NCBI GenBank assembly: GCA_964649795.1 | Contig: CAZYQY010000001.1 | Span: 11,711 to 67,180 of the forward strand | Length of the DNA: 55,470 bases | Reading direction: 5' to 3' | From: an uncultured Candidatus Saccharibacteria bacterium | Lineage (GTDB): Bacteria; Patescibacteriota; Minisyncoccia; Portnoybacterales; UBA2143 | Shown here: positions 9,117 to 55,470 of the stretch, in pieces | How the letters are laid out: the number at the start of each line of letters is the position of its first letter | Position numbering within the stretch: position 1 is the stretch's first letter | Translations under genes and position numbers: made by a program | Notes under the pieces: model-generated | Databases searched by the model: none | What the model saw: only the letters and a program-made list of their open reading frames with translations | Told to the model about the DNA's origin: nothing

Positions 9117-10556
9117 ATGAATAATCAAGAACAAAATAAAGAACAAAAAGAAAAAACTGTTCGTGAGCCAGCTGTTGAAGGGCAATTTTATCCAGAGAAC
9201 AAAGAAGAACTGGCTCAAATGATTAGCCAGTTTTTGAATGAAGCAGAACTGCTTGAAATAAAAAAGCCAGTTAGGGCCTTGATTATGCCGCATGCTGGTT
9301 ATGTTTATTCTGGAGGAGTGGCAGCTTATGGATTTAAGGCAATCCAAGGACAAGACATCAAGAAAGTAATTTTGATTGGCTGCAGCCATAATTTTCATTT
9401 AAATGGAGTAATTATTGATGGCAATGATGCATGGCAAACGCCTTTGGGCCAAGTAGATTTAGATATTGGTTTGCAAGATGCCTTAATAAAAGAAAGTTCT
9501 TTATTTAAGGTTGATTCCAGCACTCATAAACCAGAACATTCTTTAGAAGTGGAAGTTCCTTTTTTGCAAACTGTTTTAAAGAAATTTAAGCTTTTACCTA
9601 TTTTAATTGGTCACGAATTAAGCGAAAATGATTTAGAAGAAATTAGCAATGCATTATCTAAATATACAGATGATAAAACTTTAATTATTGCCAGTTCAGA
9701 TATGTCTCATTATCCAAGTTATGAAAAGGCAAATTATGCTGACAAGAAAGTTATTGACGCAATTCTAACTGGAAAAATTACTAATTTGCAAAATACAATC
9801 AGTAAATTAGAAAAAGAGAATATTGATAATTTAAATACTTGTTTATGCGCTCAAAAAGCCGTGGAAGCAGTTATAAAAATAGCAGGGAAAATGGATAATT
9901 CAGAAATTAAGTTTTTGAAATACGTTAATTCTGGCGACCTGGATTTTGGAGACCCATTACGAGTAGTTGGATATTCTTCTTTTGCTTTTATGTGGGATAA
10001 TAAGGATTCTGCATTTGAACTTAATTTTGAACAAAAAAATAAGCTTTTAGAAATTGCCAGAGCATCAGTAGAAAAATATGTTAAAGAAGAAAAGATGTCT
10101 GATTTTGAAATAGAAGATTCTTTATTAAACGAGAATTTGGGTGCTTTTGTTACTTTGAAGAAAAATGGCCAATTGCGTGGCTGTATTGGCCGGTTTGAAC
10201 CAGATATTCCTTTGTCTCAAGTAGTTTCCCAGATGGCAATTTCTGCTGCTGTTCAAGATAGCCGTTTTACTCCAGTTCAAGCGGATGAATTAAATGATTT
10301 AGAATATGAAATTTCTGTTTTAAGCCCATTGAGAAAAATAAATGATTGGCGTCAAATAGAACTTGGCAAACACGGTGTTCAAATAAGACAAGGCCTTTAT
10401 TCAGGGGTTTTTCTACCCCAGGTAGCTACAGAAAATAACTGGGATTTGGATAAATTTATGGGCGAACTATGTTCTCAAAAAGCCGGTTTGTCCTGGGACT
10501 GCTGGAAAAATGATGATGTAGATTTATATGTCTTTACGGCCGAGGTTTTTCATTAA
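9117..10556 (+). CDS. fusion of a MEMO1-family domain (AmmeMemoRadiSam protein B-like) and an AMMECR1 domain (protein A-like)
   Basis: N-terminal half has 'MPHAGYVYSG'. C-terminal half has 'GAFVTLKKNGQLRGCIGRFEP'. Start moved to the MNNQEQ Met; the track ORF starts at 9072. Confidence 0.7.
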   Translation: MNNQEQNKEQKEKTVREPAVEGQFYPENKEELAQMISQFLNEAELLEIKKPVRALIMPHAGYVYSGGVAAYGFKAIQGQDIKKVILIGCSHNFHLNGVIIDGNDAWQTPLGQVDLDIGLQDALIKESSLFKVDSSTHKPEHSLEVEVPFLQTVLKKFKLLPILIGHELSENDLEEISNALSKYTDDKTLIIASSDMSHYPSYEKANYADKKVIDAILTGKITNLQNTISKLEKENIDNLNTCLCAQKAVEAVIKIAGKMDNSEIKFLKYVNSGDLDFGDPLRVVGYSSFAFMWDNKDSAFELNFEQKNKLLEIARASVEKYVKEEKMSDFEIEDSLLNENLGAFVTLKKNGQLRGCIGRFEPDIPLSQVVSQMAISAAVQDSRFTPVQADELNDLEYEISVLSPLRKINDWRQIELGKHGVQIRQGLYSGVFLPQVATENNWDLDKFMGELCSQKAGLSWDCWKNDDVDLYVFTAEVFH

Positions 10557-10566
10557 GAAGATATAA

Positions 10567-10595
10567 TTGACAATTATCAATTAATTTGTTAGATT
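10567..10595 (+). promoter_or_regulatory. sigma70-like promoter (TTGACA, 17 nt spacer, TAGATT)
   Basis: Hexamers at 10567-10572 and 10590-10595, upstream of the pyrB-like gene. Confidence 0.5.
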
Positions 10596-10640
10596 TCAGA
10601 AAAATAAACGACCTTAACAATATAATAATGGAGGGAATAA

Positions 10641-11771
10641 ATGAATAGCCAAGAAATAGAAGAAATGGCTCATAAGATGAGCTGGCAGAAATTTGTTGCT
10701 ATGGAAGAAAAGGAGAAAATTATTTTTCTTAACAATTTGCATACTGGCAATCCCTTTCATGTTTTATTTGCCCAGCAGTTTAACCGAGAAAATTTGGATC
10801 TTCTTTGCCAAATAGCTGAAAGAGCCAGAACTATTAATAAAAATAAACAAGAAGGAGTGAAATTTTTAAGAAAATTACTCTCTGGCACTCATGCTCTTAA
10901 TTTCTTTTATCAGCCAAGCAGCCGAACATTCCTCTCCTTTGAAACAGCCCAAGAAACTTTAGGTATGAGTATCCGGGATATTCGCGACCCAAGCGTTTCC
11001 TCTGAAGCTAAGGGCGAAACGCTAGAGGACTCTATCAGAACCTTTAGTAGCTATGTTGACTTGATAATTATGAGGTATCCAGAGAAGCAAGCCGTTGAAA
11101 AAGGCGCCTGGGTATTGAATAAATCTGACCGCCGTATTCCAATTATCAATGCTGGCTCTGGCAAAGACCAGCACCCTACCCAAGCCCTAACTGATATCTA
11201 TACTTTGCATAAATCTTTTGATGGAAAGATTGATGGCCGGACAATAGTTATGTGCGGCGACTTGAAAAGAGGCAGAACTGTCCGCTCCTTATCTTATTTG
11301 ATGAAAAATTACCATGATATGAAACTGATTTTTGTTTCGCCGTCCCATTTAAGAATGGGAAAAGACATTAAAGATTTTCTCACCAGTCATAATATTACTT
11401 ATTTAGAAGAGGATAATTTAGAAGAAATAATTCCTTTGGCTGATGCAATTTATATGACTCGCATCCAGGATGAATGGAATGAAAAAAATGGTCAAACCAA
11501 GAAAATTCCTGAACCAGTTGATCCTAAATATAAATTCAAGAAAGAGTATTTAAAGCTGATGAAGAAAGATGCTGTCTTAATGCATCCTCTTCCAAAAAGA
11601 GACGAAATAGACCAAGAGGTTAGTTATTCTAGAGATAAGAGAGTGGTCTTCTGGAGGCAGCCAAGAAATGGCGTATGGATTCGTGTAGCTCTAATTGCTC
11701 TTATTTTTCAAAAACAGCAAACAATTTTAGGTTATACACACTGGTCAAAGGATTGGCGGAAAGGAGGGTAA
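10641..11771 (+). CDS. pyrB: aspartate carbamoyltransferase catalytic-chain-like protein
   Basis: 'PSSRTFLSFE' (variant of STRTR), 'HPTQALTD', 'GDLKRGRTVRSL' and 'MHPLPK'. Confidence 0.7.
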   Translation: MNSQEIEEMAHKMSWQKFVAMEEKEKIIFLNNLHTGNPFHVLFAQQFNRENLDLLCQIAERARTINKNKQEGVKFLRKLLSGTHALNFFYQPSSRTFLSFETAQETLGMSIRDIRDPSVSSEAKGETLEDSIRTFSSYVDLIIMRYPEKQAVEKGAWVLNKSDRRIPIINAGSGKDQHPTQALTDIYTLHKSFDGKIDGRTIVMCGDLKRGRTVRSLSYLMKNYHDMKLIFVSPSHLRMGKDIKDFLTSHNITYLEEDNLEEIIPLADAIYMTRIQDEWNEKNGQTKKIPEPVDPKYKFKKEYLKLMKKDAVLMHPLPKRDEIDQEVSYSRDKRVVFWRQPRNGVWIRVALIALIFQKQQTILGYTHWSKDWRKGG

Positions 11772-18127: not shown

Positions 18128-18302
18128 ATTTTTATCTTTCTTTATTATTGATATTTTACATTCGACCTTTAACAATTGACAAAATTAATATATATGATAG
18201 AGTGTTAGCCTATTTAGCAAATTGAGTTATCCCCAGTTTAGTATTAACAAAGAATGACGGGATTAACAAAAAATGCTAAGATAGAAAAAGAGAAAAAAAT
18301 TG

Positions 18303-18389
18303 CGGAGAGGGAGGGATTCGAACCCTCAAAGCATTTCAGTGCTTAATCGCTTATAAGACGAAGCCGATACCATTTCGGTTAACCTCTCC
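18303..18389 (-). tRNA. aberrant class II (long variable arm) Ser-like tRNA gene; best fold gives anticodon TAT; possibly a pseudo-tRNA
   Basis: Perfect acceptor GGAGAGG/CCTCTCC with G73. T-arm GAGGG-TTCGAAT-CCCTC. Variable arm AAGCA..TGCTT. The D-arm spacing is irregular. The anticodon stem TTCGT/GCGAT carries the loop CTTATAA. Confidence 0.55.
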
Positions 18390-52637: not shown

Positions 52638-52714
52638 GCAAAACTATTCTAAATCTTTGATTTAGTAAATAGTTTTAGCGTCCCGTAGTATTACGGGACA
52701 AAATCATATTCTTG

Positions 52715-52991
52715 TTGCGGGGGCCGGACTCGAACCGGCGACCTCGAGGTTCTTGCATATTAACCATTTATTTCTAAATGGAATGGACTATCCCATCTTC
52801 CCATTGCTAATAGTGGGAAGTTCCCATTATAGTCTCTGAACCTTGTCGTCTAAGACGACCTTGGCTGCTGATTACCGAGAAATAAATCTGACGGCTTCCC
52901 AGCAATTTAGAGAATTTTTCCACAGAATGTTGCCATCCTGGGCCACAATTTTACTTATGGGCCTCGCGAGCTGCCACTGCTCCACCCCGCA
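52715..52991 (-). tRNA. initiator-type tRNA(CAT) gene interrupted by a 205-nt intron after anticodon position 36
   Basis: Exon 1 (52957-52991) is TGCGGGGTGGAGCAGTGGCAGCTCGCGAGGCCCAT. Exon 2 (52715-52751) is AACCTCGAGGTCGCCGGTTCGAGTCCGGCCCCCGCAA. Joined, they form a cloverleaf with an A11:U24 pair and an fMet-like acceptor and T-arm. Confidence 0.8.
52752..52956 (-). other. group I intron (IC3-like, no ORF)
   Basis: The 5' splice site follows a U that can wobble-pair with the intron GUGG. The intron ends in G. The core reads 'CCAAGG-hairpin-AAGGTTCAGAGACTATAATGGG'. It is 205 nt long. Confidence 0.7.
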
Positions 52992-54934: not shown

Positions 54935-55470
54935 TCAAGTTTTTGTACATGACGGGTACATAGGTAACACTTTGATAGAATTATTGATATTTATTGGTGT
55001 TTCATTATCCAATGAATTATGCGGTCTGTAAAAGTTGTATTCAATCAGCCATTCAGTCAGATTGCTATTAAATTGTATAACATCAGGAGTATAATTGCCA
55101 AGATTAACAAATTCTTCTTGTATGGTTCTATTAAATCTTTCATTGACTGGATTGTCTTTAGGTGTTCTGGGACGACTATGGTATCTATCGAGATTAAACT
55201 TTTCGCAAGAATGTCTGAAGTATTTCTCAAATTCACTTCCATTATCTGTTTGGATATTTTCTATCTTTCCATTAGTTAAATACATTAATCTATTAAGAAA
55301 GTCAACTGCGTTGTATGAATTAACATGTCTATACCTTCTGGCAAAAGCAACCTTGGGAAAAGAATCAATGCCTGTAAAGATATATCTCTTAAGGTTATTG
55401 CATCTTAATTCAATTGCGTCTAAGCAAACAAGGAATCCATTCTTAGGTTTTTTCTTAAGCTCTGTTATTC
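54935..55470 (-). CDS. DDE transposase/integrase core (rve domain, IS481/IS3-like); the 5' end lies beyond the window
   Basis: The reading frame stays open from the window edge: '..FLVCLDAIEL..', 'TDNGSEF', 'NERFNRTIQEEF' and 'YNFYRPHNSL'. Confidence 0.8.
   Translation of the reverse strand, partial: ITELKKKPKNGFLVCLDAIELRCNNLKRYIFTGIDSFPKVAFARRYRHVNSYNAVDFLNRLMYLTNGKIENIQTDNGSEFEKYFRHSCEKFNLDRYHSRPRTPKDNPVNERFNRTIQEEFVNLGNYTPDVIQFNSNLTEWLIEYNFYRPHNSLDNETPININNSIKVLPMYPSCTKT

Follow-up and report, generated by a model that had tools for sequence, protein, structure and literature searches.

We analyzed a 55,470-nucleotide stretch of contig CAZYQY010000001.1 (assembly GCA_964649795.1), hereafter the window, and looked into a tRNA(CAU) gene on its minus strand that is interrupted within the anticodon loop. 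The locus is built from three parts:

52991-52957, minus strand: exon 1, positions 1 to 36 of an initiator-type tRNA(CAU), 35 nucleotides, ending in CCCAU (UGCGGGGUGGAGCAGUGGCAGCUCGCGAGGCCCAU)
52956-52752, minus strand: group I intron, 205 nucleotides, from A1 to the terminal G (omega-G, 52752), supported by the Rfam model RF00028 and 55 homologues
52751-52715, minus strand: exon 2, tRNA positions 37 to 73, 37 nucleotides, CCA not encoded (AACCUCGAGGUCGCCGGUUCGAGUCCGGCCCCCGCAA)

Joined at CAU/AA, the exons give a 72-nucleotide cloverleaf of the initiator type with the anticodon CAU. We hold with high confidence that the locus would be a functional initiator tRNA gene split between U36 and A37 by a compact 205-nucleotide group I ribozyme without an open reading frame (ORF). 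The sequence makes it very probable that this intron is functional and self-splicing, and that its host gene supplies the initiator tRNA of a bacterium of the candidate phyla radiation (CPR).

A default run of ARAGORN reported no initiator tRNA in the window; in intron mode, the program called tRNA-Met(cat) i(36,205). This call and the coordinates agree with the first-pass annotation, which had placed two tRNA halves 205 nucleotides apart on the minus strand, joined them into a 72-nucleotide cloverleaf, and attributed the insert to group I. That attribution was confirmed with the Rfam model Intron_gpI (RF00028), which matched end to end (52966-52764, model positions 1-253) at 75.4 bits compared with a gathering score of 50 (E = 2.2e-17), and folding of the precursor compared with shuffled controls gave z = -4.3. 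Furthermore, a relative with an empty site (L003) carries an uninterrupted gene that reads ...GCAAGGCCCAU directly followed by AACCUUGAGG... at the junction. The L003 gene and the in-silico-spliced window gene aligned alike at 94 of 100 positions, without a gap at the junction, and this intron-less allele therefore fixes the exact splice junction independently of any intron model. The G predicted at the end of the intron lies at 52752, a boundary that the L003 allele sets as well. There is no ORF inside the intron, and the longest ORF across the region measures 55 amino acids and lies on the opposite strand; a homing endonuclease was thus rejected, as the annotation had expected. No candidate maturase gene was present within or beside the intron.

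We derived a P1-P9 secondary structure by hand from the window sequence, with P7 written as a pseudoknot. Its elements are listed below, with compensatory changes counted across the 55 homologues described afterward:

52941-52948, minus strand: P1, 3' strand UUGUGGCC, including the guide GUGG (52946-52943)
52923-52940, minus strand: P2 hairpin, 7 bp with a GCAA tetraloop; compensatory changes at 7 of 7 pairs
52910-52914, minus strand: P3, 5' strand UUCUC, which pairs with 52825-52821
52866-52904, minus strand: P4-P5 domain, with P4 pairing UGCUGG (52904-52899) with UCAGCA (52871-52866) and a P5 hairpin at 52895-52874
52840-52865, minus strand: P6 (GCC with GGU) and P6a (GUCGUC-UUA-GACGAC)
52830-52836, minus strand: P7, 5' strand GAGACUA, within the R element GGUUCAGAGACUAUAAU; guanosine-binding helix
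52821-52825, minus strand: P3, 3' strand GGGAA
52797-52820, minus strand: P8 hairpin, CUUCCCA with UGGGAAG; compensatory changes at 6 of 7 pairs
52785-52790, minus strand: P7, 3' strand UAGUCC, within the S element GAUGGGAUAGUCC; partner of the P7 5' strand
52764-52781, minus strand: P9 hairpin, 7 bp with a GAAA tetraloop; compensatory changes at 6 of 7 pairs

The guide GUGG starts at intron nucleotide 11 and pairs with exon residues C33, C34, A35, and U36, which puts a U36.G11 wobble at the splice site, in line with the splice site, wobble, and guide first proposed. P10 comprises at most 1 to 2 bp, with A37 and A38 on one side and, on the other, two U's for which the first two A's of the intron are also partners. 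The two motifs quoted in the first-pass annotation, CAGGAUGGCAAC and GCCAAGG-hairpin-AAGGUUCAGAGACUAUAAUGGG, are both present, but the placement of the former in the catalytic core did not hold: CAGGAUGGCAAC forms the P2 hairpin, GCAA loop included, and lies outside the core.

Next, we evaluated the model across homologues. Metagenome contigs were scanned with the two-block pattern CAGCCAAG-N(10-40)-GGTTCAGAGACTATAAT, which matched at least 120 loci. Because ARAGORN in intron mode mis-called many homologues as tRNA-Leu, tRNA-Phe, or tRNA-Cys with shifted boundaries, we adopted a rule-based boundary finder that required a terminal G, an AA start of exon 2, and anticodon-stem pairing. At least 63 loci, representing at least 55 distinct sequences of 189 to 308 nucleotides, had the intron at the CAU/AA junction of initiator-type tRNA genes. 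The 55 distinct introns were aligned by MAFFT without structural input, and all counts out of 55 refer to the matches listed. Under the P1-P9 model, 94.8% of cells in this alignment pair, compared with 34 to 44% when partners were slid by 1 to 3 columns. Both sides change at 35 of the 59 pairs, and the covariation score was 0.532, versus 0.185 for shuffles (0 of 500 shuffles as high).

Compensatory changes run throughout P1, P2, P3, P6a, P8, and P9, affecting 4 of the 5 pairs of P3 (99.6% of cells paired) and all 6 pairs of P6a. P4 is 93 to 100% paired, and the inner pairs of P5 covary, with the outermost P5 pair poorly supported. P6 is invariant, its 5' strand being fixed by the search pattern. 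P7 is also invariant and 100% paired; its 5' strand belongs to the pattern, and its 3' strand is kept in 55 of 55 homologues though it lies outside the pattern. L2 and L9 are GNRA tetraloops in every homologue (55/55). The pairing and the compensatory changes establish that the RNA structure is under selection. Moreover, all 55 homologues have the U36.G pair, and exon position 33 and the fourth guide base are U-A in 33 homologues, C-G in 22, and unpaired in none. The guide has therefore tracked a substitution in the anticodon loop at position 33, which is hard to explain unless splicing is under selection.

Members of the family differ in size. The shortest, at 189 nucleotides (L091:959-1147, minus strand) and 191 nucleotides (L148:1162-1352, plus strand), retain the full P1-P9 set and are shorter than both the 205-nucleotide intron of the window and that of Azoarcus. 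More than half of the members (32 of 55; e.g., L083, L086, L087, L098, and L102) are long forms of more than 235 nucleotides with a conserved, structured insertion of ~60 nucleotides in P5 (alignment columns ~135-215) that resembles a P5abc-type extension; the window copy is a short form.

The search pattern was meant to be specific for the family and also matched other group I introns. Among the 120 listed metagenome matches, 62 (e.g., L084, L088, and L092) were an unrelated larger intron, most with a 33-nucleotide gap. This larger intron has a 33-nucleotide P6a spacer and lies on very AT-rich contigs, many of them binned as giant-virus metagenome-assembled genomes (MAGs). All 120 matches listed on at least 119 IMG/VR contigs (L203-L321) likewise belonged to this larger, unrelated intron, so a phage-borne tRNA-fMet intron found no support among them. 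Two further matches, L139 (~9380-10690, minus strand) and L156:870-1417 (plus strand), were group I introns in class II tRNA-Leu genes with UAA/CAA-type anticodon loops, indicating that different classes of tRNA introns can share identical Q and R elements.

The window has a GC content of 33% and encodes housekeeping proteins that include PheS, GatA, LigA, DnaE, ThrS, and EF-Tu. The pheS gene, ~500 bp from the split tRNA, matches Patescibacteria/CPR genomes best: the top match is 81% identical ("Parcubacteria group bacterium," L003), and those that follow are 70% or lower. The host is thus a bacterium of the Patescibacteria (CPR), of the ultra-small type. The window also matches, at 100% identity, two metagenome contigs of different origin. 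The labels of the closest PheS relatives (L005-L056) are mixed: many read "uncultured Candidatus Saccharibacteria," others of similar identity read Parcubacteria, Paceibacterota, Nealsonbacteria, or Moranbacteria, and a few read Bathyarchaeia, Woesearchaeota, Gammaproteobacteria, or Bdellovibrionales. Below the phylum level, the submitter taxonomy of these MAGs is unreliable.

We then compared loci linked to PheS in species-representative genomes, with 80 loci listed and all counts being lower bounds. At least 24 of the 80 had an intron-less initiator-type gene nearby, and at least 5 (L005, L011, L014, L022, and L034) had a homologous intron at the same position; RF00028 scored 77.9 to 92.9 bits on three of these five introns. 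Among the loci listed, the presence of the intron was patchy even between close relatives. At four linked loci, the introns were 81, 76, 71, and 71% identical to that of the window, compared with PheS identities of 68, 63, 58, and 54%. Intron divergence thus tracks PheS divergence, which fits vertical descent with repeated precise loss. The nearest intron among those listed, at 82% (L096), interrupts a tRNA whose D-arm and T-arm are very different, a hint of transfer or of exon conversion. The history may be one of vertical descent with losses or one of horizontal spread.

The split gene heads a cluster of tRNA genes with the following neighbors:

53025-52997, minus strand: sigma-70-type promoter, TTGCCA (53025-53020), 17-nucleotide spacer, and TATAAT (53002-52997), matching the consensus at 11 of 12 positions
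52637-52564, minus strand: elongator-type tRNA(CAU), Met or Ile2, with C11:G24 and G1.U72, not initiator-like
52557-52483, minus strand: tRNA-Asp(GUC), the last of the three tRNA genes
52440-52424, minus strand: intrinsic-terminator-like hairpin followed by a U run, downstream of tRNA-Asp

The promoter ends 5 nucleotides upstream of tRNA position 1 and is identical to that of L003. With a promoter before the split tRNA and a terminator after tRNA-Asp, the three tRNA genes look like a single operon. Between the split tRNA and its downstream neighbor, the spacer holds a perfect 7-bp hairpin, GUCCCGU-AAUACU-ACGGGAC, with no U-tract (52680-52699, minus strand), which may be a processing signal. 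Elsewhere in the window, ARAGORN called an 88-nucleotide "tRNA-Ile(tat)" (18302-18389, minus strand) of class II shape, with a long variable arm, G73, and a weak anticodon stem. The Rfam tRNA model gave this candidate only 33.6 bits; its identity is doubtful, and the anticodon call is possibly doubtful too. Near the window end, just downstream of pheS, lies an rve_3 integrase-core fragment (54935-55285, minus strand), and a contig identical to the window carries a 66-amino-acid gene with a recorded DUF397 Pfam match (L001:2848-3048). Together, the fragment and this gene suggest a mobile-element remnant at the contig edge.

The tRNA itself has the D stem GAGC...GCUC with A11:U24, the bacterial initiator signature (elongators have Y11:R24), and its acceptor stem (GCGGGG/CCCCGC) and T-arm resemble those of tRNA-fMet. 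Bacterial initiators usually have a 1:72 mismatch. Across the family, position 1 is A in 23, C in 22, U in 9, and G in 1, and 51 of 55 members have A72, so that most share the mismatch, in contrast to the window tRNA, whose U1-A72 is a weak Watson-Crick pair and a minority variant (U1 in 9/55). The anticodon stem (A29:U41, G30:C40, and G31:C39) has two of the three canonical initiator G:C pairs; such two-GC variants have been reported in some bacteria such as mycoplasmas. The U1-A72 and A11:U24 pairs, C33, and the two bottom G:C pairs had all been noted in the first-pass annotation and are there in the sequence. A11:U24, the fMet-like acceptor and T-arm, the separate elongator gene next door, and the mismatch at 1:72 in the family together argue for an initiator, and we infer that the tRNA serves as one in vivo.

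C33, which had been flagged as an oddity, is indeed unusual for bacteria but is not peculiar to this tRNA. Among the 30 initiator genes of the PheS-linked loci listed, 19 have C33 (loop CCCAUAA), and most of these are intron-less (examples are window 52957-52964, L004:2019-2093, L007:210-281, and L012:5674-5745), so that the substitution is lineage-wide. In an earlier study (PMC8887486), the prokaryotic initiators examined had U33 and those of multicellular eukaryotes had C33, and the change U33C blocked t6A formation by E. coli TsaBCDE. We considered C33 as a consequence of the intron, through a stronger P1, and rejected this: intron-less relatives have C33 too, and hosts with U33 have a matching GUGA guide. 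C33 is therefore not linked to the intron. Another departure, a remodeled elbow, was present in 19 of 30 PheS-linked loci (e.g., L007:210-281, L009:1987-2058, L012:5674-5745, L017:1582-1653, and L026:152-223). These tRNAs have the T-loop UGCAAUU or UGCAACU, with G55 for the universal U55, a D-loop AGUAGUA with a single G (no G18G19), and a 4-nucleotide variable loop. The window initiator gene has the canonical GG and UUCGAGU. Canonical and remodeled types share the syntenic position, and both can host the intron.

The structure suggests how splicing would proceed. The precursor would be transcribed from its own sigma-70 promoter together with the elongator tRNA(CAU) and tRNA-Asp, and the intron would fold into the standard P1-P9 core. 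The guide GUGG would pair with exon residues C33 to U36, setting the U36.G wobble at the 5' splice site, and a free guanosine bound in P7 would attack after U36. The terminal G (52752) would then occupy the same site, and the freed 3'-OH of U36 would attack before A37, giving a mature anticodon loop CCCAUAA. Because P10 has only 1 to 2 bp, the exons would be held together mainly by the anticodon stem of the tRNA, as in other tRNA introns. The anticodon stem is reported to align the exons in such introns (literature cited in PMC3984707) and probably does so here. The L2 and L9 GNRA loops probably stabilize the fold by tertiary docking, again by analogy with other compact tRNA introns.

Several points weigh against this interpretation. 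Guanosine-dependent self-splicing, and hence catalysis, is a prediction from sequence; a second intact initiator gene may lie in the genome beyond the 55 kb covered; and the tRNA departs from E. coli initiator rules in its weak U1-A72 pair, its two G:C pairs, and C33. Furthermore, P7, P6, and part of P4 never vary, some of their strands being fixed by the search pattern, and these helices thus supply no covariation evidence. The 55/55 counts for the terminal G, the AA of exon 2, and the anticodon stem hold by construction, being conditions of the boundary rule; neither the window intron nor the L003 allele depends on that rule. The partial view of the genome and the noncanonical features U1-A72, C33, and A29:U41 would also suit a disrupted pseudogene, with an inactive intron in a cell that relies on another, intact initiator gene. 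CPR genomes, however, are small and usually have single tRNA copies. Moreover, at least 55 distinct sequences keep the same intron at the same site with compensatory changes in P1, P2, P3, P6a, P8, and P9; the exons are intact, the guide tracks the exon, the promoter is near consensus, and the noncanonical features are common to intron-less genes of relatives. We consider a pseudogene highly improbable. It is also very unlikely, if slightly less so, that the split gene encodes an elongator tRNA-Met or a lysidine-modified tRNA-Ile2 (CAU). Such a tRNA would share its anticodon and insertion site with the Azoarcus tRNA-Ile(CAU) intron, and the paired U1-A72 and the two G:C pairs that close the anticodon stem would fit it. 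Against it stand the A11:U24 signature, the fMet-like acceptor (GCGGGG/CCCCGC) and T-arm, the A or C at position 1 in 45 of 55 members with A72 in 51 of 55 (mostly mismatched), and the elongator feature C11:G24 of the neighboring tRNA(CAU). In addition, the available text of Williams (bioRxiv 2020, doi 10.1101/2020.01.27.920355) has an isotype-model pipeline label the corresponding intron class as fMet.

Alternatively, the intron may be real and depend for its splicing in vivo on a host protein, either a chaperone or a maturase-like factor, instead of being fully autocatalytic. Many group I introns splice in vivo only when proteins assist them, and the genome here is AT-rich (33% GC), with weak P5 and P10 pairings in the 205-nucleotide form. 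The core, however, is complete, with two invariant GNRA tetraloops for self-stabilization and no candidate maturase gene in or beside the intron, and compact tRNA introns such as those of Azoarcus and Anabaena are generally known to self-splice efficiently (PMC3984707). We give this dependence a small chance. The idea of a horizontally moved copy of the classical cyanobacterial tRNA-fMet intron (the Synechocystis/I-Ssp6803I type) draws on the initiator tRNA host, the similarly compact size, and the shared group I core. It is scarcely credible, given that the cyanobacterial intron (fMet.2Ug) is inserted after U33 and that of the window after U36, and that a profile of the family scored 10.1 bits (core) against the cyanobacterial seed Tpc1.fMet.2Ug versus 116.7 bits, full length, against another seed, Yba21.fMet.5Ug.

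A functional intron of this kind would matter in several ways, its main value lying in the covariation of exon and guide, in how widely the family occurs among Patescibacteria, and in the unusual initiator tRNAs. If the split gene is the only initiator gene, RNA self-splicing would gate all translation initiation, and the guanosine-nucleotide pool might do so too. Default tRNA gene finders miss an essential gene here, and since gene finders miss or mis-call intron-split initiators, estimates of CPR completeness and tRNA repertoire are biased. The pairs of filled and empty sites are useful for studying gain and loss of introns without an endonuclease, and natural ribozymes of 189 to 205 nucleotides could serve as structural or engineering models beside that of Azoarcus. 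More surprising, perhaps, is a by-product of the analysis: C33 in bacterial initiator tRNAs across a whole lineage. A further proposition, which we think unlikely but worth stating, is that a broad clade of Patescibacteria with ultra-small genomes has a single-copy initiator with C33 and often a remodeled elbow, and that a sizeable minority of its species needs a guanosine-dependent ribozyme that has coevolved with position 33.

To place the intron among known systems, we compared it with catalogued tRNA introns. By sequence, it is a well-supported further member of the class fMet.5Ug, which the available text of Williams (bioRxiv 2020) includes, with the seed Yba21.fMet.5Ug, as one of 17 newly listed tRNA-intron settings. 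An nhmmer profile of the 55 sequences matched this seed at 116.7 bits over profile positions 3-255, versus 34.2 bits for the next-best class, and the seed was also the best pairwise match of the window intron. The window intron agrees with the class in an fMet-type tRNA, insertion after loop nucleotide 5 (position 36), a U at -1, and a terminal G. Seed and window intron share these features of host gene type and site, along with AAUUGCYGGAAA, AAUCAGCAGC, UCAGAGACUAUAAU, AUGGGAUAGUCC, and a GNRA-capped P9. They come from different genomes, are ~77% identical (gapped pairwise), and differ at the tracked position, with C33 and the guide GUGG in the window and U33 and GUGA in the seed. Lui et al. 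(2021) remarked in passing that some tRNAs of circularized CPR genomes carry group I introns; with the fMet.5Ug seed, this means that the class was already on record. The text of Williams available to us lists it without covariation analysis, host lineage detail, or a presence/absence comparison, and we found no publication that describes its structure, host range, or evolution. The present analysis adds covariation evidence for this family of ribozymes, which occurs widely among Patescibacteria and is distinct from the cyanobacterial tRNA-fMet intron.

The first-pass annotation had likened the intron to those of Azoarcus and cyanobacteria; the shared catalytic core stood, and the closer kinship to the cyanobacterial tRNA-fMet intron did not. 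The classical cyanobacterial intron (fMet.2Ug, inserted after U33 according to the available text of Williams 2020) also belongs to group I and likewise interrupts the anticodon loop of an initiator tRNA gene, but it lies between U33 and C34, whereas that of the window lies between U36 and A37. The copy in Synechocystis PCC 6803 is 655 nucleotides long and encodes a 150-amino-acid PD-(D/E)XK homing endonuclease, I-Ssp6803I, in contrast to the ORF-less window intron. Identity with this intron was rejected on the insertion site and on the profile score (10.1 bits against Tpc1.fMet.2Ug, core only).

The tRNA-Ile(CAU) intron of Azoarcus sp. BH72 (Ile2.5Ug, subgroup IC3) resembles that of the window in its site (CAU/A), in an exon triplet paired with a GUG guide, in its length of ~205 nucleotides without an ORF, and in the GNRA loops on P2 and P9 (PMC13168695). 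It differs in the identity of the host tRNA and in its P4, P6, and J6-7 sequences (AAAUUCGGCG, GCCGAGCC, and GGUGUAGAGACUAGAC). The window intron is without the Azoarcus-type 11-nucleotide receptor in P8, and the profile gave the Azoarcus seed 8.9 bits, core only. The tRNA-Leu(UAA) intron of cyanobacteria and plastids (Leu.3Ug) is also a compact group I intron of the anticodon loop; it scored 33 bits, core only, and is unlike that of the window in its tRNA host, its insertion site between U34 and A35, and its peripheral helices. Compared with subgroup IC3 as a whole, short forms of the family consist of P1-P9 only, with GNRA loops at L2 and L9 throughout, and long members add the P5 extension; the P4, Q, and R sequences are unlike those of the four classical IC3 tRNA introns.

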